Source of the DNA: Vicinamibacterales bacterium
GTDB lineage: Bacteria > Acidobacteriota > Vicinamibacteria > Vicinamibacterales > UBA8438
Length of the DNA stretch: 64,000 bases
Direction of reading: 5' to 3'
Assembly: GCA_965202655.1 (NCBI GenBank)
Contig: CBDBBK010000002.1
Location: 884,685-948,684, forward strand
Made by a program: the position numbers and the translations under genes. The number at the start of each line of letters is the position of its first letter. The first letter of the stretch is position 1. The notes beneath the pieces were generated by a model, which searched no databases, was not told where the DNA came from, and saw nothing but the letters and a program-made list of their open reading frames with translations. Shown in pieces: positions 5,999 to 17,410 of this stretch.

Positions 5999-6077
5999 GA
6001 CTGCTTTGCGGAGGGGCGAACGCAAGCGCGCGGACCGGACACCGCCGGCCGCCGCAAGACGGAGCGGCGGAGGGTAG

Positions 6078-6704
6078 ATGCGCAAGGCGGTAATCGCGCT
6101 CGCGGCGCTCGCCGTGCTCGGCGGGCTGTTCTGGTGGACGGTGCAGAGCAGCCTGGCCGAGCCGTACGTCGTCGACGCCGGCCTCGTCTCCGAGTGGAAC
6201 GTCGCGCTGCGCGGACCGGGGCGGGGCGCCGGCCTGCTCGTGCTGGAGACTTCGGACCAGCTTCGCGCCGAGTTGTTCCAGCAGATCTTCACCCGCACGA
6301 TGGAGTCGATGGTGTCGCCGCCGACGGCGGCGGTGCCGCTGGTGCTCGCCTCGGAGTACCGCCAGTCGCTGGGGAGCGCGCTTTCGCCGGAGGACCTGCT
6401 CCGGGTGGCGGAGGAATCCGGGTTGCCGGACGCCGTTCCCGCGCCGGTCTGCATCGGCGTGGTCCGGGGCGAAGGCGCCGCCAGCACGCGGCAGCTCTAC
6501 TACGCGATCTTCGAGGCGCCCGAAGCCGGCCGCTTCCGTGACGCGCTGGCGCGCCGCTACGGCGAGGCCGGCGGGACGGGGGCGTTCCAGCCGGACAGCT
6601 TCCCGCTGGTCATGCCGCTCGCCGCCTCCGACAACGATTTCGCGAGCTGGTGGCCGCTGGACGTCAGCCCCGCCGACTGCCTGGCGCCGCTCGTCACGCA
6701 GTAG
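6078..6704 (+). CDS. Hypothetical membrane-anchored protein
   Basis: N-terminal TM helix, host-like codon usage, GGAGG RBS. Confidence 0.7.
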   Translation: MRKAVIALAALAVLGGLFWWTVQSSLAEPYVVDAGLVSEWNVALRGPGRGAGLLVLETSDQLRAELFQQIFTRTMESMVSPPTAAVPLVLASEYRQSLGSALSPEDLLRVAEESGLPDAVPAPVCIGVVRGEGAASTRQLYYAIFEAPEAGRFRDALARRYGEAGGTGAFQPDSFPLVMPLAASDNDFASWWPLDVSPADCLAPLVTQ

Positions 6705-7130
6705 TCGGGCACGCCAGAGAGGGTGACACTCTCTCCCCTTCGCTGAGAGAGAGGCATGCCCCGAAGGGAGTGTCGCGTCCTGGGCGAACGTCTTCCCTTC
6801 GTTGTCCGGCGCCTGCACGGCGAGAAGATGGCCGGTCTCTGCCGGGAGTTCGGTATCCGGCAAGACCGGCTACAGGGTTCGCACGCTACAAGGACTGCGG
6901 TCTGGAGAGGCTGATCGACCGGAGCCGACGACCGTATCGGCACGCTAACCGGTCGCAGATTGAGACCCTGATCGTGCGTCTCAAGCGCGAGTATCCCGGC
7001 TGCGGTGCTCCGAGGATCCGCGAGCGTTTGCGGCGACGGTATCCAGCGCTGCTGTATCCGGCCATCAGCACTGTGCACGCGGTGCTGGACCGCCACAGGT
7101 TCGTCAAGCGCGGGAAGCGCCGCCACTGTC
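6696..7130 (+). mobile_element. Degenerate IS481-family transposase 5' remnant (copy 1)
   Basis: ATG 6756 MPRRECRVLGERLPFVVRRLHGEKMAGLCREFGI, then after frameshifts TGY...GLERLIDRSRRPYRHANR...IVRLKREYPGCGAPRIRERL...PAISTVHAVLDRH; no integrase core. Confidence 0.75.
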
Positions 7131-7164
7131 GGGCGTGTGGCATCGAGCGGCGAGCGGGTGTGCG

Positions 7165-7458
7165 CTACGCGTTGGGTTCGGCTGGATCGGTCGGTTCCGG
7201 CCTGATCTGGTCGAACAGGGGCAAGAGTCGCTCCAGGATTTCCTGCCCCTGCCGCCGTTCTTCAAGCAGCATCCACGCCGCGAAGACGGTCCACGCCATA
7301 AACAGCACGCCTACGAAAATGACTAGGTAGTTCCAAGCTGTGCGGCCAAGGTGATTCCTCAGCGCCTCGGACACCCGGATCACCATCGGCAACAGCACGA
7401 CCACTGCAGCCATCGTGCCTAGGATCATGTAGGCCACCGTCAGCCACTGCGCCCACAT
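7165..7458 (-). CDS. Small hypothetical membrane protein (2 TM)
   Basis: MWAQWLTVAYMILG... two hydrophobic segments; start inferred at ATG 7458. Confidence 0.5.
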   Translation of the reverse strand: MWAQWLTVAYMILGTMAAVVVLLPMVIRVSEALRNHLGRTAWNYLVIFVGVLFMAWTVFAAWMLLEERRQGQEILERLLPLFDQIRPEPTDPAEPNA

Positions 7459-7528
7459 GCTCTCTAGCACGGCGGTGAGTTTACCACCCCCCTCTGTCCG
7501 TCTATAGTTGGCGCTGGGAAGGAGCACC

Positions 7529-7771
7529 ATGACTGTCGCAGAGTTGATCGAGCGTTTACAGGAGTTGCCGCAGAACCTAGATGTTGTTATCCCGGATCTG
7601 GACTCGCACCTAGAACGAGCGACACATTTGTCCTGCGCCACGGCGTCAGTGAAGGCGGCTCGCGGTCATGGTGGCATCGGCGGATGGGATCTGGACGGCG
7701 TCAACGGAAGGACGCTGGTATGGCAGCCAGATGACGAGCCGGTCTCTGTCGTGGTGCTGGCTGCGGATTAG
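7529..7771 (+). CDS. Small hypothetical, phage-like protein
   Basis: MTVAELIERLQELPQNLDVVI, an N-terminus common in small phage/MGE proteins; AAGGAG RBS. Confidence 0.55.
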   Translation: MTVAELIERLQELPQNLDVVIPDLDSHLERATHLSCATASVKAARGHGGIGGWDLDGVNGRTLVWQPDDEPVSVVVLAAD

Positions 7772-8051
7772 CTGTGGTATGTGGGATTCAAACTAATTCG
7801 CCATGAATCCAAGCCCATCGGCTTCAAGCTTCTTCGTGTACTCGGCGAAGGCGAGAACCGCACTTAGCGGCTCGACTTGCGAGTCGTCGCCGCCACCGCC
7901 AATCGCGCGAGGATGGTAGGATTCTCGGGGTTGTTGGTGCTGATCGAGGCGACGGGGATTGGTCGACGCGCTGACCCTCGGTTCGAGACTCAGGTGCCGC
8001 GGGAGCCCTGAATGAACAGCCTGTCGAAGCTCCGCCGATCGCTGGCTGGGC

Positions 8052-8465
8052 TCACCTTCGCCCCAAGAACTCGCGGACGCGCTCGGCGACGCCCTCTCGG
8101 GTTACTTCGCACTCCCAAATCACGAGCACGTCCCAGCCTAGCTCGGTCAGCCGGGCACGGTGCTCGATGTCGCGCTCCTGGTTGCGGCGGAGCTTCGGTT
8201 CCCAGTACTCAAGATTCGATCTCGGTCGGTGGGCAAGCTTGCAGTTCGGATCCGGATGTTGGTGCCAGAAGCACCCGTGCACGAAGATTACTTGGCGCCG
8301 ACCGGGAAAGACGAGATCGGGACGCCCAGGGAGATCATGCCGGTGTAGGCGGTAGCGGTAGCCCATGGCGTGCACTAGGCGGCGTATCGCCAGCTCGGGC
8401 TTCATCCCCTTGCTGCGAATCGCGCGCATGGTGGCGCTGCGCACCTCAGGACTCACTCGATCCAA
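8052..8465 (-). CDS. vsr: Very short patch repair endonuclease
   Basis: MDRVSPEVRSATMRAIRSK..KPE...DLPGRPDLVF...IFVHGCFWHQH...DVLVIWECE; TTG start with GGAGG RBS. Confidence 0.95.
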   Translation of the reverse strand: MDRVSPEVRSATMRAIRSKGMKPELAIRRLVHAMGYRYRLHRHDLPGRPDLVFPGRRQVIFVHGCFWHQHPDPNCKLAHRPRSNLEYWEPKLRRNQERDIEHRARLTELGWDVLVIWECEVTREGVAERVREFLGRR

Positions 8466-8505
8466 GGCTACTGCCTCCGCTTGTAGCTCAATAAGAGGTT
8501 ACCGC

Positions 8506-9420
8506 ATGGCATTGCAGATAAAGGAGTTCTTCGGATATGCCCCTCGAGACCCGGCTGCCGCCGACGACGTGGCGGAGCAGCGCTGCCCCTTCGTGGAGAG
8601 CGACTGCATCAAGCCTAATCATGGGGCGTGTTCGGTGCAGCAAGTGACCGCGCCGGAGCCAGTTATCTGCTGCCCGAACCGAATGTACGCCGACGACTTT
8701 CAGATTCTGAAGGAGATTGCGGTTGAGGCTTTCGGGCCCGATGCTGAGCTCATCCGACCGGCCGACGTAGAGGGGCGTGCCGCGGTCGGCGGCATGACCG
8801 GGCGTGACGTCGCTGTGTTCGGTCGCTATTGGGGCCAGGAACTGCCCCTGCCACGTCCTCAAGGCCAAGGTGCGGCGGCGTACTACGTGGACTGGATTCT
8901 GGCCAAGCTCGATGCCCATGGCGCACTGGACGAACTGACAGCGGTTGAGGTCCAGACGATCGATACGACGGGAAACTACAGCGACCAGGCGCGGCGCTTT
9001 TTCGCGGGCCGGGCGTTCAGAGACCCGCAGGGTCGGAACCCCGGCTACAGCGATGCCGGCATGAACTGGGAGAACGTCAACAAGCGCATTCTCCCGCAGA
9101 TCATTTACAAGGGGCACGTACTCCGACTCGAAGAGAGATGCACGAAGGGGCTCTATTTCGTCTGCCCCCAGCAGGTCTATAGCCGGATTCGGGAGCGGCT
9201 GGGCGGCAATCTGCACAACATCCACCCAAGCCCGGGGGCGATAACGTTCCGGAGCTACGAGTTGGGGCCGGAGGTGCCGGCAGGCCGGCGACGCGCCATG
9301 ACGCTCTCGGAGCAGTTCACGACGACGGTGGACCAAGTTGCTTTGGCATTTACGGCCCCGATGAATCTCCCGGAGCGAAACGTGTATGCGGCGGCGATCA
9401 ACACGGCTCTCGGGAGGTAG
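8506..9420 (+). CDS. NotI-family restriction endonuclease (paralog A)
   Basis: Cys4 motif CPF-x4-C...CS...CCPNR; VDWIL...VEVQTIDTTG; NWENVNKRILPQIIYKG. Confidence 0.8.
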   Translation: MALQIKEFFGYAPRDPAAADDVAEQRCPFVESDCIKPNHGACSVQQVTAPEPVICCPNRMYADDFQILKEIAVEAFGPDAELIRPADVEGRAAVGGMTGRDVAVFGRYWGQELPLPRPQGQGAAAYYVDWILAKLDAHGALDELTAVEVQTIDTTGNYSDQARRFFAGRAFRDPQGRNPGYSDAGMNWENVNKRILPQIIYKGHVLRLEERCTKGLYFVCPQQVYSRIRERLGGNLHNIHPSPGAITFRSYELGPEVPAGRRRAMTLSEQFTTTVDQVALAFTAPMNLPERNVYAAAINTALGR

Positions 9421-9422
9421 CG

Positions 9423-10601
9423 TCACAACGCTACAGCAGCGTCCGCTTTGGCAGGCTCGACTTCCAAGCGGGACGTGTAGCGCGGTGCCCATCTGGAGCC
9501 GGCCTCAATGAGCGCCAACCCAATCTGCTTCGCGAGAAGTGGCGGAACGGCGTTTCCGACCTGCACGTACTGTTCCGTGCGTGGACCAGCAAACAGGAAC
9601 CAGTCGAAGAAGGACTGGAGGCGGGCAGCTTCGCGGACACTCAGAGTACGATCCTGTTCGGGGTGAATGTAGGCTCCCCAATGCAGGTCACACTTGGTGA
9701 GAATCGTAGAAGCAAGCCCGTCTCTGCGAAGTCTACCGTAGCGCTTCGTGTGGTCACATCGGCGGGCGCGTTTCATCCCAGCGGGCAACAGCTCATACGG
9801 TACGTCGCGCCAGCTCCCGCCCTCGGGAATGTGCTGCATCCGGCGAAGGTTAATTGGCGCAAGGCAGGGGGCGGCATGGTTTGCGACGCGCACGGAGTCG
9901 CCACGAAGGTACGCTTGGTAATCAGTCCTCGGCGCCGTGCGGTAGCGTATCGGACCCTCGGGAACCTCGCCGTTCGCGAGCGGCGGAAGATCCCCGATGG
10001 CGTCCCACACCGTGACAAAGGGGCGGAGTCCAGGGCCGTGGGTCGGTGCCGGCCAGCGGATCGGGAGGCCCAGCCTGTTGCCCAGAAAAAAGATGCGGCG
10101 GCGCTCCTGCGGTACACCGTATTCCTCCGCTCGGAGAATCCGCGTCTCGACGGTGTACCCAAGGTCTCCAAGGCCGGCGAGGATGTTCTCGACGGCTTGA
10201 CCGTCACCGGTCGACGTGATGCCGGTGACGTTCTCCATGACGACCCATCTGGGCATCAGTCCCCTGACGACGCGTAGGTACTCACGGAACAAGCCACTCC
10301 GCTTGTCGTGCATTCCGCGCTGGTGGTTGTAGACGCTGAACGCTTGGCATGGCGGGCCACCGATGAGACAGTCCAACTCCCGTTTCTTAATCCCTGCGGC
10401 TCTCAGGAAATCGCGGGCAGAAATGTCTTCGATGGCACCCGGCAGAAACTGCGCTTCGCGATGGCTCGCCACGTACGTATCGGCGGCGAAGGGGTCGAGA
10501 TCGTTGCCCGCAAGGACGCGGAATCCTGCTTGGCGGAAGCCCTCGGAGAGGCCGCCCGCGCCACAGAATAGGTCGATGGCTGTCCATGGGCGATCGGTCA
10601 T
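9423..10601 (-). CDS. DNA (cytosine-5) methyltransferase
   Basis: Motif I DLFCGAGG, IV GGPPCQ, VI ENV, VIII QERRR, IX REAARLQSF, X GNAVPP. Confidence 0.97.
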   Translation of the reverse strand: MTDRPWTAIDLFCGAGGLSEGFRQAGFRVLAGNDLDPFAADTYVASHREAQFLPGAIEDISARDFLRAAGIKKRELDCLIGGPPCQAFSVYNHQRGMHDKRSGLFREYLRVVRGLMPRWVVMENVTGITSTGDGQAVENILAGLGDLGYTVETRILRAEEYGVPQERRRIFFLGNRLGLPIRWPAPTHGPGLRPFVTVWDAIGDLPPLANGEVPEGPIRYRTAPRTDYQAYLRGDSVRVANHAAPCLAPINLRRMQHIPEGGSWRDVPYELLPAGMKRARRCDHTKRYGRLRRDGLASTILTKCDLHWGAYIHPEQDRTLSVREAARLQSFFDWFLFAGPRTEQYVQVGNAVPPLLAKQIGLALIEAGSRWAPRYTSRLEVEPAKADAAVAL

Positions 10602-10792
10602 CGTCTGGGCGGTCTCCCGGACGACATCGTGAGTGGAAGCTGAAGTTCATCGCTCCGGTATCGCTCCAGAAACTCGACAACGGCTTGCCGACCGAGCCAA
10701 GCGAGAGAGATGCGATGTTTTTCGGCGAGAGCCGAGAGTTCGCTGTACTCTTGCTCAGACAGGCCCACGGAGATTCGCGGTTTTGCGACCAT
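10598..10792 (-). CDS. Ribbon-helix-helix (CopG-like) regulator; putative RM controller coupled to the MTase
   Basis: MVAKPRISVGLSEQEYSELSALAEKHRISLAWLGRQAVVEFLE beta-alpha-alpha pattern; its stop overlaps the MTase ATG. Confidence 0.8.
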   Translation of the reverse strand: MVAKPRISVGLSEQEYSELSALAEKHRISLAWLGRQAVVEFLERYRSDELQLPLTMSSGRPPRR

Positions 10793-10811
10793 CGTATCTA
10801 GCCCATAATGC

Positions 10812-10862
10812 AGCGTCCTGCCACACGATGCAGCAAACGTGAGCATTGTGAGGCAGGATGCT
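10812..10862. promoter_or_regulatory. Imperfect 20-bp inverted repeat upstream of the RHH-MTase operon (candidate operator)
   Basis: AGCGTCCTGCCACACGATGC (10812-10831) vs reverse complement of 10843-10862, AGCATCCTGCCTCACAATGC: 17/20 match, 11-nt spacer. Confidence 0.55.
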
Positions 10863-11251
10863 CAGCGAGTCAAGCTGTTTCTGAGCTGGTCCCTAGCGCC
10901 CGTTCCCTGCGGCGCTCCCGCTAGCGGTAGGCTGCCACGACGGCGGGTTGAGGCCGACGGTGTGGTTATCCGGCGTCGGGCTCTCGGAACGATCAGCGAA
11001 CCGCCGTCGGATTTCTGCAGAGGGCGATCTGCACCGGTCTCCGCCGATCGGTGGACCAGAGGATTGCAGCAGGGAGACGGCGACGCGCGAGACCCTTCCT
11101 GAGAGTCTGTGTTTCCAGTGTTCCGCTTTGGCTTGCTTTCGAGCCGCGAACCTGGAGGTAGCGAGCAAAGTCCAGCGGCAGCTTCAGCGCCACGACGACA
11201 CGGGAGACGCGAGGCTGGTCGCGCGGACCAGTGGTTGAAATGCCGCCTGGC

Positions 11252-12088
11252 TCAACTATCCTGAGGGCGGTCAAGCGAACGTCTAATCCGCTCACAGAAG
11301 GCGGCACGTGATGGTGCTTCCTTGTAGAGAACTGCCTGCTGGAGGTTAGCGTGGCTGGTGCCTTCCACAGTGTCGAGGACGAGTCTCGGTGTTCCAGCGT
11401 TGTCGCGGTCGTCTTCGTAGCGGTAAGCCATGAAGATGATATTGACCGTGTTGTTCTTCACGTCGTCGGTACGCATGAATTCGGCCCAGTCGCAGATGTA
11501 GTCGTAGACGACATCCTGCATTACGGCGACGATCTTGGTTCCCCAATGGTGGTGAAAATAGCCTTTGCGTATGAGCTGGGTGATATAGCGCTTGTAAACA
11601 TTGCCCCAGTTCAGTCCGTACTTGGGACGCCGGTCTAAATCTCTGTCGGCCAGTAGTGCCTTGTAGGCGGGCATTACGGTGCCGGAAATGTCCATGGCCT
11701 GCAGTTCGACAGAGAGGAAGTCAGAGATTGTTCCGCCTTGTCTGATGTCAGCGATGACGAAATCCACATTGCCGAACTCCGCCATCTGGACTTCACGGGC
11801 GATTTGAGGGTTGGCGGGCGGATCGCCGGGCCAGCAATTGGCGACGATGTCCGGCAGAAAATCAACGGCATAGAATCGCTTCGGGCAAACGCAGATCCGG
11901 TTCGGTTGGCCGGCAATAGTGCGTCGGATCGAGCAGACGGGATATGGCACGTCGCCGAGAGAAGTGCTGCGCTTACTGCATCTGGTGCCGAGGAAGGGGC
12001 ACCGATAATCACGCGCTGCCGGATCGAACCCTCTGACAGCGGGTTGTCCGAGCACCTCGCAGAGGATCTCTGTGGGATCACACGGCAA
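11252..12088 (-). CDS. NotI-family restriction endonuclease (paralog B)
   Basis: Cys4 motif CPF-x4-CSK...CS...CVCPKR; GNVDFVI...SVELQAMDISG; NWGNVYKRYITQLIRKG. Confidence 0.8.
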   Translation of the reverse strand: MPCDPTEILCEVLGQPAVRGFDPAARDYRCPFLGTRCSKRSTSLGDVPYPVCSIRRTIAGQPNRICVCPKRFYAVDFLPDIVANCWPGDPPANPQIAREVQMAEFGNVDFVIADIRQGGTISDFLSVELQAMDISGTVMPAYKALLADRDLDRRPKYGLNWGNVYKRYITQLIRKGYFHHHWGTKIVAVMQDVVYDYICDWAEFMRTDDVKNNTVNIIFMAYRYEDDRDNAGTPRLVLDTVEGTSHANLQQAVLYKEAPSRAAFCERIRRSLDRPQDS

Positions 12089-12427
12089 AGGCGGTTTCCT
12101 TGGCTAGCTCGACGCGCCAAATGTGTACCTCAGACATCGGGCAGTAAGTATTGTAGCGTCAATGACGTCACGAACACGTGGGAGGTCCGGCTGGCGCGTT
12201 CGTGCGGCGACACCGCGCCAGCGCGTGTCCTGTGCAGCGGATGGAAGCAGCAAACCATGGCCGCACCGCAGTGGTCGATCGCCGGACGGTATCGCACGCC
12301 AGAAACCAGTCGCGGACAAGACGACGGCGGAGGGACGGAGGGAAGCTGCGTTGTGTGGCAGCTAGTGGTCCGTCACGTGTCAACCTTAGGACTATCGGGA
12401 AGCTGGTTTCGAGCCGAAACAGCTTTC

Positions 12428-12874
12428 ATGCCGGAGAAAAAGTACATCGTTCGACTCAGCGCCCAGGAACGCGAGATCTGTCGACAGACGGTCCGCAAGC
12501 TCAAGGGTAGCAGCGAGAAGGTGCGGCGCGCTCAGATTCTCTTGCAGGCGGATGTGGACGGACCGGGGTGGACCGACCAGCAGATCGCCGACGCCTTGTC
12601 GTGCCGCACGAAGACCGTCGAGAACATTCGCCAACGCTGCGTTCAAGCGGGTTTCGAGCGGGCCCTGGAACGCAAACGGCGGGTGTTGCCCCCCGGTCTG
12701 AAGCTGCTCGACGGCGAACAGGAGGCGCAGGTCATCGCCCTGCGCCTGGGGTCGCCGCCGCAGGGCTACGCGAACTGGTCGTTGCGGCTGTTGGCGCGCC
12801 GTGTCGTCGAGTTGGGGGTGGTCGAGTCGGTCAGCCATGAAACGATCCGGCGGACGCTCAAAAAAACGCGATGA
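12428..12874 (+). CDS. IS630 transposase OrfA (HTH part)
   Basis: KKYIVRLSAQER...RRAQILLQAD...W.DQQIA..L...WSLRLLA...SHETIRRTLKK; ends just after an A7 slippery run. Confidence 0.9.
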   Translation: MPEKKYIVRLSAQEREICRQTVRKLKGSSEKVRRAQILLQADVDGPGWTDQQIADALSCRTKTVENIRQRCVQAGFERALERKRRVLPPGLKLLDGEQEAQVIALRLGSPPQGYANWSLRLLARRVVELGVVESVSHETIRRTLKKTR

Positions 12875-13566
12875 CCCGGCGGAAGCTCGAGTACTGGGTG
12901 ATCCCGCCGCAGGCCGATGCCGAATTCGTGGCGCACATGGAACAGGTCTTGGACCTGTATCAGCAACCCTACGACCCGGCCAGCCCCGTCGTGTGCATGG
13001 ATGAGCAGCCGGTGCAGCTGGTCCAGGAGACGCGCCCGCCGGTGGCCGCCACGAAGACACGCCCGCGTCGCGTCGACTACGAATACGAACGGGCCGGCAC
13101 GGCCTCGGTGTTCCTGTTCAGCGAGCCGCTGGCGGGTTGGCGCCAGGCGACGGCCCGAGCCCGGCGTACGAAGGCGGACTGGGCGGTCGAGGTCGCCGCG
13201 CTGCTGGAAGGCCGCTACGCCGACTGCCCGCGGGTCACCCTCGTGTGCGACAACCTCAATACGCACACGAAGGGCGCCTTCTACGAAGTGTTCGAGCCGG
13301 TGCGGGCACGAGAACTGGTTCGTCGCCTCGCGTTCTGCTACACGCCCAAACACGGGAGCTGGCTGAACATCGCGGAGAACGAGCTCAGCGCCATGACGCG
13401 CCAATGCCTGCGCGGACGCCGCATCGGCGACCTCGAGACGTTGCACGACGAAGTGTCGGCGTGGTCCAGCGACGTCAACCACACCCAACGCGGCGTCGAC
13501 TGGCAGATGAAGGTCGACGATGCTCGCTATAAACTCAAGTCCGTCTATCCGAATATTGTGATGTGA
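12871..13566 (+). CDS. IS630 transposase OrfB (DDE domain), probably fused to OrfA by -1 frameshifting
   Basis: VVCMDE, LVCDNLNTH, YTPKHGSWLNIAENE DDE_3 motifs. Confidence 0.9.
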   Translation: MTRRKLEYWVIPPQADAEFVAHMEQVLDLYQQPYDPASPVVCMDEQPVQLVQETRPPVAATKTRPRRVDYEYERAGTASVFLFSEPLAGWRQATARARRTKADWAVEVAALLEGRYADCPRVTLVCDNLNTHTKGAFYEVFEPVRARELVRRLAFCYTPKHGSWLNIAENELSAMTRQCLRGRRIGDLETLHDEVSAWSSDVNHTQRGVDWQMKVDDARYKLKSVYPNIVM

Positions 13567-13766
13567 CGGACCACTAGGCGCCGTGGGACAATTCGTTCTC
13601 CGCACTGCGGACGTGCCGGGAACGAAGCCCCGGGAGCGCCTTCTGGGGAAGGTGTCGCGGTCACGGGCCGACATGAACTTCGGGATATCGGAGGGCGGAT
13701 CGACCGGCGTCCTCGCTTTTTTGTCCGGCCTCTCGACCTGCCTACGTCACGAAGGAGCAGATCATT

Positions 13767-15953
13767 GTGAAGGGAATCCACGACTGGGCGCCTTGGTTCC
13801 AAGAACTCGCGCGGGCCGTTCTGGGGGCAGGAGAAGCCGGATTGATCACCCAGGTCAACCAAGTGGACTGGGGGGGGGACGGCAGACCCGAGTTGCTCAG
13901 GAATGGTGATCCGGGAATCGATCCGTTCTCGTTCTTCTACTCTTTGGCTCAGAAGAACACCAAGAACCAGCGGCCGAGGGTCTATCCCAGTGTCGCGAAG
14001 TACTTCGGGCTAGCGCCTCCGCCGGATCCGGAGAATGCGGATCTCTACACGTTTCCCAGCCCGATTCCAAGCGCTCCCGCCGTTTTCAACGACAGACGTG
14101 AATTCAGGCCCGATCTACTGTGGCGTCTGTTCCGGCAGGCAGTCGAGGACGAGCCGCAAATCGATCCGGAGCTGTTTCGGGAGGTTCTGGGAATCAGGTT
14201 TGTAGCGATAAAGAAGCTGACGCATACGCTGTGCCTGATCAACCCGAACTACTTCGTGCCTGCCGATGCGCTGAAACATCTGCCAGCGAACCGCGGCATG
14301 GACCTAGAGCGCTGTGGTCATGCAGAGTACGTGTCGGCCATGGACAAGGCCAAGCGGACCTTCCCAGAATGCCTTGCGTACGAGATCAACACGTTCGTGT
14401 TCTTCCAGTACATGTCGGGATCTCCGCTGATCACGGTCGAGTCCCGGTACTTCCAGGTCGGCACACAAGCCTATGGGGAGGACCGTTGGACCGACTTCGC
14501 CGGGAGCAACGCTGTGTACACGGACGCATCCAGACCAGGAGGCCGCGCTGGTTCATGGAGTGAGGAGACGACTGAGGGCGACCCTCCGCGCACCCCGTAT
14601 CCTCTCGCGGAGCCCAGGCGGGGAGACGTCATCCTGGTCCGCGCCGGGTTCGAAGGGCGCGCGATAGGCGTCGTTCACAGCAACGACTACACCGAGCGCG
14701 ACGGACTGAAACTGAATAAACGCAGCAGACTCCACGTGTACTGGATCAACAAGGCCTCGGCCAGCTTGGCCCAGACGGACCAGAGGGCCTTCGCGGGCGT
14801 CCCGCGGGACAGCGCCACGTACAGGGCGTTTGCGACGGCGGTTGCGTACAAACCGACGTTTGCACTGCTCCACGAAGAGCTACGGAGGAACGGGATAGAA
14901 GTGAAGCCCCACCCCCTGAATCTGATCCTCTATGGGCCACCCGGCACTGGAAAGACGTGGCGCACGGTCACCCAGTCGGTAGCGATTGTCGGGGGCCGGA
15001 GCGTCCACGAAGTGTCAGAAGAGGAGCGGGAAGACCGCGCCGCCATCAAGCGCCGGTTTGACGAATACCGGGACGCGGGCCTGATCAAGATGGTCACCTT
15101 CCACCAGAACACCACTTACGAGGACTTCGTTGAGGGCATCCGGCCCGTGCTGGTGGGCGATGTGAGCGACGCGGACATCTCAGCCGAACCACAGAGCGTC
15201 GGAGATGTCCGGTACCAGTTGTCTCGCGGCGTTTTTCGGCGGATCGCTGAGCGCGCGGAGCAGGATCCGGACCGGCGTTACGTACTCGTCATCGACGAGA
15301 TCAACCGCGGCAACATCGCCGCGATCTTCGGCGAACTGATCACCCTGATCGAGGACTCGAAACGGATCGGTCGGGACGACGAGGCACGCGTGACACTGCC
15401 TGGCTCTAAGGCGGTCTTCGGCGTGCCGCCGAATTTGCATGTCCTCGGGACAATGAATACCGCGGACCGATCCATCGCCCTGCTGGACACGGCGCTACGA
15501 CGCCGGTTCGTTTTCGAGGAAATGATGCCGGATCCGCTCCATCCCGGCGTCGGTACGGACGTAGGTGGCGTGGATTGCCGAGCGCTCCTTGCCGCGATGA
15601 ATCGTCGAATCGCCGTCCTGCTCGACCGGGAGCACCAGATCGGCCACACGTACTTCCTGGGAGTAGACACACTGGAGTTGCTCGCGAGCACCTTCCGGAC
15701 CCGAATCATGCCGCTGCTGCAAGAGTACTTCTACGACGACTGGGAGAAGATCCGCGCCGTTCTGAACGACAACGGCTTCGTCCGGGAGTCGGACCCGCCG
15801 GAGGAACTGGTCGGATCGGGTCTTGTGGATGCCAGCCGGGCCGTGTACGAGTTGGCGCCTGCCGACGGCCTGTGGACCGCCGTTTCCGCGTACCAACGGA
15901 TCTACAAGGGTGAGACAGCGGCGGAAGGAGACAGCGCGACACAGGATGGCTGA
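13767..15953 (+). CDS. mcrB: McrB-family AAA+ GTPase with long N-terminal specificity region
   Basis: Walker A GPPGTGKT, VTFHQNTTYEDFVEG, Walker B VIDEINRGN, McrB signature MNTADRS, LRRRF, IGHTYF, PLLQEYFYDDWEKI. Confidence 0.9.
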   Translation: MKGIHDWAPWFQELARAVLGAGEAGLITQVNQVDWGGDGRPELLRNGDPGIDPFSFFYSLAQKNTKNQRPRVYPSVAKYFGLAPPPDPENADLYTFPSPIPSAPAVFNDRREFRPDLLWRLFRQAVEDEPQIDPELFREVLGIRFVAIKKLTHTLCLINPNYFVPADALKHLPANRGMDLERCGHAEYVSAMDKAKRTFPECLAYEINTFVFFQYMSGSPLITVESRYFQVGTQAYGEDRWTDFAGSNAVYTDASRPGGRAGSWSEETTEGDPPRTPYPLAEPRRGDVILVRAGFEGRAIGVVHSNDYTERDGLKLNKRSRLHVYWINKASASLAQTDQRAFAGVPRDSATYRAFATAVAYKPTFALLHEELRRNGIEVKPHPLNLILYGPPGTGKTWRTVTQSVAIVGGRSVHEVSEEEREDRAAIKRRFDEYRDAGLIKMVTFHQNTTYEDFVEGIRPVLVGDVSDADISAEPQSVGDVRYQLSRGVFRRIAERAEQDPDRRYVLVIDEINRGNIAAIFGELITLIEDSKRIGRDDEARVTLPGSKAVFGVPPNLHVLGTMNTADRSIALLDTALRRRFVFEEMMPDPLHPGVGTDVGGVDCRALLAAMNRRIAVLLDREHQIGHTYFLGVDTLELLASTFRTRIMPLLQEYFYDDWEKIRAVLNDNGFVRESDPPEELVGSGLVDASRAVYELAPADGLWTAVSAYQRIYKGETAAEGDSATQDG

Positions 15954-15955
15954 CC

Positions 15956-17410
15956 ATGCAGACCGTGGGCGCTCATGACCAAAGCGGGCTGGCCTCCGTG
16001 ACCCGAGCGGGTGATAACCCACCGGAACGCCAAACGGTGGGGACGAGCACACGCGCCTCCGTCTCGGACGCGCCGACGGCGCGTCCGAGACGCACGACGC
16101 CGCGTTTACTGGTTCTTCGAGAGTACGAGCCGCTGACTGGATTGCGTGAGGACGAGTTGCGCGATCTGGAGAGATTCGCGCATTCCCAGCCGACCGATGC
16201 GGAGGGCCGGCACCGACCGGTCCTCGCGTTCCAGCACGGTCGCCTCCACGCACGGAACTACGTCGGCGTGATTGAGACGCGCCAAGGAACGACGATTGAA
16301 ATACTGCCGAAGATCGACCTTGCGAACGTCGGGAACGAGTCGAGAAGGCCCAACAGGCACGGTGGCGACCAGACGGACGGCCCCGCCGATTCCTCAGGGA
16401 GCCTGCACGAATGCACCCGGAGGGTCTTCCTGGCCATGTTGCGAGACTGGCGCGGTCTCGGGCAAGCGCAGCTTGACGCGGCCAGTATCCGCGAGGTTCG
16501 CCGCTTCGACATGCTTGAAGCCTTCGTCCACCTGTTCCTGACGAACGTCATCGTGCTGACCCGGCGAGGCCTCGCTCGGGCGTACCGGACTCGGGAGGCG
16601 AATCTGCCATGTCTGCGCGGGCGGATTCTGTTCCCGCCGCATGTGCGCGAGAATCTGGTGGACCGCTCGCGCTTCTACGTGGGCTACGATGAGTTCACTG
16701 CGGACCGACCCGCGAACCGGCTGATCCACCTCGCGTTGCGGCGGCTCACGCGTGTCGTGCGCCATCCGGCCAACCGACAGCGGGTCCACCAGTTGCGCAT
16801 CGTCTTCTCCAACGTGCCACCTTCGACGAACCCAGACGACGATTGGGAGCGGCATCGTGTGGACCGCTCAATGCGGCACTACGACGCCGTGATGCCATGG
16901 GTTGGGTTGTTCCTGTTCGGCCACGGTCTCGCCACGTTCGGCGGATCGCACGTCAACCGTGCGCTGCTGTTTCCGATGGAGGAAGTGTTCGAGGACTTCG
17001 TCACTGCCGCCCTCCGTCGTCACCAGCGGCGGTTCATCGTGCGCGCCCAGGGCCCCATGCGACCTCTGGCGACGGACAGCGCCGGCGCGGCAGCCTTTCG
17101 GCTGAAACCGGATGTAGTCCTGATGGAGCACGGGCAGTGCCGATTCGTTCTGGACGCGAAGTGGAAGCATCTCGACACCGCCGCGCCCAACCATGGCGTC
17201 AGTCAGGGCGACGCGTACCAACTCTTCGCGTACGGGAAGCGCTACGGCTGCCGACGCGTCGCCCTGATCTATCCGACGACCACGGCGTTTCGCGAACCAC
17301 GGATGTTCCGATTTGTTGATGAGGGCGCTCTGGAGATGGCCTGTTTTCCGTTCGACGCGACCGACTCCGAAGCGGCGATACGCGTGATGATGCACGAACT
17401 GCTACGCTGA
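15956..17410 (+). CDS. mcrC: McrC-family PD-(D/E)XK nuclease subunit
   Basis: YVGVI...IEILPK; DEFTADRPANRLI; LFPMEEVFEDFV; LKPDVV...VLDAKWK...DAYQLFAYGKRY; 2 bp after mcrB. Confidence 0.9.
   Translation: MQTVGAHDQSGLASVTRAGDNPPERQTVGTSTRASVSDAPTARPRRTTPRLLVLREYEPLTGLREDELRDLERFAHSQPTDAEGRHRPVLAFQHGRLHARNYVGVIETRQGTTIEILPKIDLANVGNESRRPNRHGGDQTDGPADSSGSLHECTRRVFLAMLRDWRGLGQAQLDAASIREVRRFDMLEAFVHLFLTNVIVLTRRGLARAYRTREANLPCLRGRILFPPHVRENLVDRSRFYVGYDEFTADRPANRLIHLALRRLTRVVRHPANRQRVHQLRIVFSNVPPSTNPDDDWERHRVDRSMRHYDAVMPWVGLFLFGHGLATFGGSHVNRALLFPMEEVFEDFVTAALRRHQRRFIVRAQGPMRPLATDSAGAAAFRLKPDVVLMEHGQCRFVLDAKWKHLDTAAPNHGVSQGDAYQLFAYGKRYGCRRVALIYPTTTAFREPRMFRFVDEGALEMACFPFDATDSEAAIRVMMHELLR

Follow-up and report, generated by a model that had tools for sequence, protein, structure and literature searches.

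Two NotI-family nucleases beside a single methyltransferase in a Vicinamibacterales restriction-modification locus: a probable remnant of merged, compatible cassettes

NotI is a Type IIP restriction endonuclease that acts as a homodimer. It carries an Fe-Cys4 motif and a Q variant of the PD-(D/E)XK active site (PMC4081073). Two paralogous nuclease genes within one restriction-modification (RM) locus are known from the Type IIT enzymes BbvCI and Bpu10I, whose subunits are obligately co-inherited, whose recognition site is asymmetric and which usually come with two methyltransferases (MTases) (PMC4081073). RM systems that share the same or an inclusive target, as in work on EcoRII, SsoII and Dcm, form an incompatibility group, within which the genes of one system can be lost without killing of the cell (PMC3874152). 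Here we compare with these systems an RM locus from a Vicinamibacterales bacterium, contained in a stretch of 64,000 nucleotides (contig CBDBBK010000002.1, 884,685-948,684) that is called the window throughout and within which all positions of the locus are numbered. A six-frame open reading frame (ORF) list and Pfam place five RM genes where they had been predicted: a Vsr mismatch endonuclease, a nuclease A, a C5 cytosine DNA methyltransferase M, a ribbon-helix-helix (RHH) regulator and a second nuclease B.

An earlier note on this DNA had offered two interpretations of the paired nucleases: R1 and R2 subunits of a heterodimeric enzyme that each cut one strand, possibly as nickases, or two nucleases with nested specificities. 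The first is not supported, and the locus gives no ground for proposing a new heterodimeric or nicking enzyme. The second, widened to the same or a nested specificity under one MTase, fits all of the evidence and explains it best, with the specificity itself deduced indirectly. At a probability of roughly 0.7, we consider A and B to be two independent nucleases blocked by the same methylation, the product of a merger between an A-type and a B-type cassette after which the surplus methylase disappeared. The individual parts of the locus are ordinary; its chief lesson is a conserved MTase module with a slot that has been filled many times by at least four divergent NotI-family subtypes.

Profile, fold and motifs all identify A and B as intact NotI-family nucleases. 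Against PF12183, the NotI profile with a curated cut-off of 22 bits, A scores 34.2 bits and B 31.6 bits, so that neither fails the family profile as the earlier note had thought conceivable, and a profile scan of the whole genome finds no NotI-family genes other than these two. The proteins are 28% identical over ~200 residues (E 8e-15), and profiles of the two subfamilies align over their full length in hhalign (probability 99.6%, E 8e-24), bringing into register the four cysteines, the D...ExQ catalytic pattern and the block NW.NV.KR...Q.I.KG. The cysteines (C27, C34, C42 and C56 in A; C30, C37, C52 and C68 in B) are invariant in their family alignments, the window proteins included, and the catalytic residues (D129/E148/Q150 in A; D109/E128/Q130 in B) and the block are likewise invariant within each subfamily. 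B keeps all 64 of its family-invariant residues in a full-length ORF, and A has an insertion of ~40 amino acids relative to B. Pfam, fold and family alignments thus agree with the earlier description of two divergent paralogs that carry these motifs.

The structural comparison gives the same answer. For the AlphaFold2 models of A and B (pLDDT 90.5 and 89.3), NotI (3C25) is the sole significant match in the PDB by Foldseek (A: E 5e-16, TM 0.75; B: E 7.5e-9, TM 0.63), which assigns both to the NotI fold of an N-terminal metal-binding domain and a PD-(D/E)XK core. A and B therefore resemble NotI (3BVQ/3C25, PF12183) in Pfam gathering score, full-length fold, four cysteines and D...ExQ pattern, but they are only 18-23% identical to it in structural alignment and 80-105 residues shorter. 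Searches of PDB sequences by phmmer with A, B and representatives of two further subtypes, C and D, gave no NotI match, so the link of all four subtypes to NotI comes from the Pfam and fold searches only. A and B each most likely act alone as NotI-like homodimers. Homologs number 1933 for A and 568 for B, the latter matched at full length (99% coverage). In the public protein collection B is represented solely by a 177-aa product (P0177, 64% coverage), which presumably results from an internal start call that omits the Cys4 domain; judged by its homologs, the real B gene is the 278-aa ORF with a TTG start.

Around 160 related loci were compared: 80 genome loci found with M, which are the best 80 of 556 or more M-ortholog loci, and 79 metagenome loci found with B. 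Further contexts were fetched for close homologs of A and B, and all loci were scored by tblastn with the five window proteins. Their M orthologs are 62-90% identical and belong to a conserved module, RHH -> M -> nuclease slot -> Vsr, in which the slot adjoining M is filled by a single nuclease of the NotI family, belonging to subtype A, B, C or D. Subtype B occupies it in at least 35 of the best 80 genome loci, co-directional with M and often overlapping its stop codon, and an M ortholog lies directly 5' of B in every one of the 66 metagenome loci that show DNA upstream of B. Subtype A is found in at least 19 of the same 80, convergent with M, in addition to two distant A-like nucleases; the convergent A/M pair stands without a second nuclease in L004, L005 and at least 17 other loci. 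Subtype C (~280 aa) accounts for nine of the 80 and subtype D (~310-340 aa) for 14, and both match Pfam NotI at E 1e-39 to 1e-59. Fifteen single-nuclease genomes were searched whole, and each (15/15) has one NotI-family gene, which shows that A needs no B and B needs no A. The earlier note had allowed that each paralog might turn out to be a complete nuclease, and in substance this is so, as each is self-sufficient elsewhere.

Apparent disruption of subtype-A nucleases next to an intact M was observed in L013 (7185-9894), L011 (7181-8103) and L064 (7158-8079). In L013 an insertion of ~1.8 kb separates codons 207 and 208 of A, and the split tblastn hits to A in L011 and L064 suggest frameshifts. 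These would be cases of nuclease decay that leaves an orphan M, with or without Vsr.

Loci with two nucleases are rare. They comprise the window locus, L007, L008, L014, L041 and L167, or ~4-6% of all loci, and their gene orders all differ. Given in the orientation of M, L007 reads <-A, RHH-> M-> B->; L008 reads B-> Vsr-> A-> <-M <-RHH; and L014 reads A-> RHH-> M-> B-> Vsr->. L167, on a short contig, shows part of an A gene together with Vsr and a B-like gene. L041 (4617-7766) combines an intact D with A beside a single MTase (Vsr<- M-> <-D <-A, the frame of A being open and cut by the contig end), from which it follows that the stacking of nucleases is not specific to A and B. The extra nucleases are intact in L007, L008, L014 and L041. 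The idea that the synteny of the window locus might recur is therefore borne out in part: A and B occur together with M in L007, L008 and L014, while the gene order itself does not recur. Linkage of B to A is seen in a small number of other genomes, and the genome studied here contains no separate MTase for B.

Phylogeny indicates that these pairings arose separately. In a maximum-likelihood tree of 85 M proteins, the type of nuclease partner switches at least 13 times, and the four A+B loci fall in four separate places, the starred branches forcing four dual-state changes. Three of the four have a well-supported single-nuclease sister: the window locus groups with L004 (A only, support 99), L014 with L009 (B only, 99) and L007 with L013 (A only, 98). 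The dual loci are likewise placed apart in trees of A and of B, and nucleotide comparison resolves L014 into the RHH-M-B-Vsr block of L009 with A added outside it. The reverse step is seen in L171, which is 86% identical in nucleotides to the dual locus L008 across Vsr-A-M-RHH. Its A, M, RHH and Vsr genes are intact, and the 5' two-thirds of B have been lost (~680 bp deleted relative to L008), leaving a 53-aa C-terminal remnant of B at 6021-6179 (E 1.6e-17), directly upstream of Vsr. Two-nuclease loci have thus originated more than once, with varying partners, and the added nuclease can disappear again.

In L007 (6839-8834), M groups with A-linked MTases, yet its stop codon is overlapped by a B gene that comes next, the layout of B-type cassettes, which suggests that recombination took place either inside M or at its 3' end.

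The locus shares with BbvCI and Bpu10I the presence of two paralogous nuclease genes in one RM locus. It differs from them in that each paralog is self-sufficient elsewhere, that pairing is sporadic and independently derived, and that there is one MTase. The obligate co-inheritance that characterizes Type IIT systems is contradicted by A-only and B-only loci and by the polyphyly of the dual loci, and in place of two MTases or MTase domains there is one single-domain C5 MTase.

The construction of the window locus can be read from its relatives. Positions 8060-10864, a block of 2.8 kb with Vsr, A, M and RHH, are collinear with A-only L004 (82% identical in nucleotides), and B is not part of this block. 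In blastn comparisons the homology of B does not stop at its start codon but continues to 12103 against L009 and to 12100 against L014, where those loci have the 3' end of M; these few bases upstream of B would be the scar of a lost M-B junction. Low-stringency tblastn of the window detected no second M, RHH or Vsr remnant near B, and neither the spacer between B and the block nor the DNA upstream of B has a blastn match to any fetched locus. An IS630-like element lies 272 bp upstream of B, bounded by terminal inverted repeats of ~30 bp (12357-12391 and 13548-13582) and present in three near-identical copies in the genome (twice in C2, once in C3). Its word depth in the source metagenome runs is 130-2500, compared with ~7 on either side, and contig ends fall at 12361/12390 and 13548. 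The element may have been involved in the loss of the RHH-M that once belonged to B.

The arrangement is not an artefact of assembly, since a contig from an independent public run spans 7000-12390 with 0 differences. Region-bearing contigs were found in two of three public runs, none of them identified as RNA, and included no variant without B, and the assembly and the boundaries of the insertion sequence (IS) were confirmed.

M is a single-domain enzyme that matches PF00145 at E 1.8e-65 over profile positions 3-322 of 324, and the motifs GGPPCQ and MENV are present in its sequence. It is the sole C5 MTase in the genome (one whole-genome match) and is presumed to protect against both A and B. 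The earlier observation that the paralogs bracket a single MTase whose gene converges on A was confirmed: A and M lie tail to tail with their stop codons 2 bp apart. Upstream of M, the RHH stop and the M start overlap by 4 bp, and at the other end of the block the Vsr start lies 40 bp from the A start, on the opposite strand. Vsr matches PF03852 at E 1.4e-28 (99 bits, cut-off 27) and occurs 3' of the nuclease slot in many related cassettes.

Identity across the target recognition domain (TRD) of M (residues 191-285) is 65% for A-linked and 67% for B-linked orthologs, and the conservation of this domain is about equal to that of the catalytic core. The simplest reading of this equal conservation is one methylation specificity served by interchangeable nucleases. 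M aligns to the structures of M.HaeIII and DNMT1, and its best PDB matches (DNMT1, M.HaeIII and 3G7U) cover mainly the catalytic core, so that no specificity can be assigned from them. Under a maximal-order Markov model, a scan of palindromic 4-, 6- and 8-mers in the 4.16-Mb host genome showed no avoidance of GGCC-, CGGCCG- or GCGGCCGC-type sites (observed/expected ratios 0.84-0.93), a result that is uninformative on specificity, as expected for a recent island. The words CAGCTG, AAGCTT and CTAG are strongly avoided but unrelated.

These observations can be drawn together in a history of merger and loss. An ordinary Type IIP cassette of the form RHH -> M -> slot -> Vsr would have carried A in its slot, and would have picked up B from a second, methylation-compatible cassette. 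Each nuclease would cut unmethylated copies of the site that M methylates, the two sites being identical or one nested in the other. With M already blocking both nucleases, a B-type cassette (RHH-M-B-Vsr) could enter an A-type cell, or the reverse, without harm, and the redundant RHH-M and Vsr could then be lost harmlessly, possibly through a deletion associated with the IS630-like element, to leave two nuclease genes and one MTase gene. Vsr in such a cassette would repair the T:G mismatches that result from deamination of 5-methylcytosine (5mC). The argument for compatibility is that a lone nuclease gene persists only if the resident MTase blocks its sites; the presence of an extra B beside an A-type block, and of an extra A beside a B-type block and in a D locus, therefore argues that the same methylation blocks all of them. 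It is from this co-residence that we infer the same or nested specificity of A and B, and from the comparison of loci the order of the merger and loss events.

Some points weigh against this history. Identical or nested specificity draws on the logic of co-residence and on TRD conservation. Two orthologous copies of M in one locus were not seen among the ~160 loci, and merger followed by loss is read from its end products. The frequency of dual loci is far above that expected from random co-occurrence of rare cassettes, and this excess could reflect selection for two nucleases, not only homology-guided integration. Finally, the promoter scan found no consensus promoter for B, which may be silent.

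Comparison with the work on EcoRII, SsoII and Dcm places the merger of cassettes in a wider setting. Where two systems have a common methylation target, theory predicts that the genes of one may go without post-segregational killing (PMC3874152), and loci with two nucleases and one MTase, as well as the decayed B of L171, are the outcomes that incompatibility predicts; that work, however, concerned separate complete systems, mostly on plasmids, whereas the loci described here are fused and chromosomal, retain both nucleases with one MTase, and are found repeatedly in nature. The literature searched contained no direct precedent for two isospecific nucleases sharing one MTase in a Type II system, and no description of NotI-family subtypes. 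The two-nuclease loci look like natural intermediates or by-products of nuclease exchange, and they provide evidence from the field for the idea that methylation specificity defines an incompatibility group within which nuclease or MTase genes can safely be gained and lost. The four divergent subtypes, probably blocked by one methylation, should also be useful to enzymologists who ask how a single fold can recognize the same site in different ways.

Alternatively, B could be a passenger, silent or inactive: what is left of a disrupted B-type cassette, tolerated because M protects the genome, and decaying with no role in restriction. B has indeed lost its translationally coupled place behind M, of which only the 15-bp junction scar is left, it sits beside an IS630-like element, it has no consensus promoter, and the remnant in L171 shows that deletion of extra nucleases occurs. 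On the other hand, the ORF is full length, all 64 of 64 family-invariant residues are in place, the Cys4 and D/E/Q residues among them, and the extra nucleases of L007, L008, L014 and L041 are also intact. AGGA is a plausible ribosome-binding site before the TTG start, and B is co-directional with RHH-M with no terminator predicted between them. We consider a passenger role for B unlikely.

Selection for the two-nuclease configuration would require that A and B (or D and A in L041) differ in site, cleavage geometry, or susceptibility to phage anti-restriction or base modification, or that they form mixed dimers as well; we regard this as distinctly unlikely. If it were true, one MTase would license a broader or more robust repertoire, and RHH-M-nuclease-Vsr would be a platform for stacking and exchanging NotI-family nucleases. 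In its narrower form, where A and B differ in the sequence recognized around the M core, or in sensitivity to anti-restriction or base modification, and so broaden the spectrum under one MTase, the idea is improbable. There are at least five independent dual lineages, above chance for elements found in roughly 0.3% of species, all extra nucleases are intact except that of L171, and the ~40-aa insertion of A relative to B means that the DNA-binding surfaces may differ. Yet each dual locus is closely related to a sister with one nuclease, no clade of dual loci has lasted, L171 is one clear loss, and the enrichment can be explained without selection by the common M, RHH and Vsr homology together with the lack of a restriction barrier between iso-methylating hosts.

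A heterodimeric Type IIT-like enzyme, with A and B as R1 and R2 subunits that each cut one strand under the protection of a single MTase, would account for divergent paralogs adjoining one MTase, for the catalytic residues kept in both and for the recurrence of A+B in L007, L008 and L014, but it is very improbable given that dozens of loci pair A or B singly with an orthologous MTase, that none of 15 genomes checked has another NotI-family gene, that dual loci have at least four independent origins and differing gene orders, that L171 lost B with A, M, RHH and Vsr intact, that a D+A pair exists in L041, and that known heterodimeric enzymes have asymmetric sites and usually two MTases (PMC4081073) where this genome has one.

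The regulator upstream of M is of interest in its own right. As a single sequence the RHH protein scores below the Pfam cut-off (16.5 against 20.5 for RHH_1/RHH_3), and a profile of 16 RHH orthologs matches RHH (CopG, PutA) structures, among them the CopG-family regulator 6IYA (E 6e-6) and 7ETR (E 4e-5). Its orthologs indicate 10792 as the likely start. A-type and B-type cassettes alike keep the gene upstream of M, and the protein has no Pfam match to a helix-turn-helix (HTH) family, which places it outside the Xre-type C-protein family. A promoter scan of the window found a promoter-like site, TTGACT-17-CACAAT, at 10873-10845, and 3' of it, at 10834-10820, there is a degenerate copy of the palindrome GCTGCA-N3-TGCAGC. 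An alignment of 16 cassettes, including those of the window, L009, L014 and L015, has a common upstream arrangement in which a promoter with a -10 region (TTGACA-N17-cat.cTG) is directly followed by the perfect palindrome, and the consensus of this candidate RHH operator is GCTGCAACATGCAGC. When the RM locus was searched with the palindrome, the sole match was in the RHH promoter, with none upstream of A or B. RHH is probably an autorepressor of the RHH-M operon that would act through this palindrome, and it may work in a controller-like manner.

In B-type cassettes the RHH-M operon also includes B. The B gene of the window is uncoupled from RHH control. As no terminator is predicted between B and RHH-M, transcription of B could read through into RHH-M.

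The C-protein RM systems PvuII, AhdI, Esp1396I and Kpn2I are comparable in that a small DNA-binding protein heads the operon and a palindromic operator lies in its own promoter, and the window RHH is presumably autoregulatory, as C proteins are. C proteins are of the Xre-type HTH fold, whereas the protein here is RHH (CopG-like), and its gene precedes and is coupled to M, rather than to the nuclease gene as in C-protein systems. To our knowledge, the RM controllers characterized so far are HTH proteins, and a full-text literature search found no paper on an RHH-type RM controller. The locus points to an RHH-type RM regulator with a clear candidate operator.

The coordinates of the genes and sites discussed above are collected in Table 1.

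Table 1. Features of the RM locus and its immediate surroundings, in window coordinates
Feature	Position	Strand	Size, evidence and remarks
Vsr T:G mismatch endonuclease	8052..8465	-	137 aa; PF03852
Nuclease A, NotI-family subtype A	8506..9420	+	304 aa; PF12183
C5 cytosine DNA methyltransferase M	9423..10601	-	392 aa; PF00145
RHH (CopG-type) regulator	10598..10792	-	64 aa from ATG at 10792; ORF reaches 10846
Promoter-like site and candidate RHH operator	10820..10873	-	promoter scan; 16-cassette upstream alignment
Unique 387-bp spacer between B and the RHH-M-A-Vsr block	10865..11251	.	without detectable coding remnant
Nuclease B, NotI-family subtype B	11252..12088	-	278 aa, TTG start; PF12183
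~15-bp homology to the M 3' end of B-type cassettes	12089..12103	-	blastn
IS630-like insertion sequence	12361..13582	+	1222 bp; inverted repeats, copy number

The locus lies in a part of the window, between roughly 7 and 22.5 kb, where GC content falls from ~0.70 to ~0.60, and an M ortholog is absent from the 60 relatives examined, which include 6 members of its genus and 30 of its family. Low GC together with the absence of M from these relatives indicates that the RM locus is situated on a horizontally acquired island. The same low-GC island carries, ~3 kb from M, genes for an McrB-like GTPase (728 aa) and an McrC-like protein (484 aa) at 13767-17410. If this McrBC-like pair cuts 5mC-containing DNA, either the motif methylated by M must escape it or the target of the pair must be a different one.

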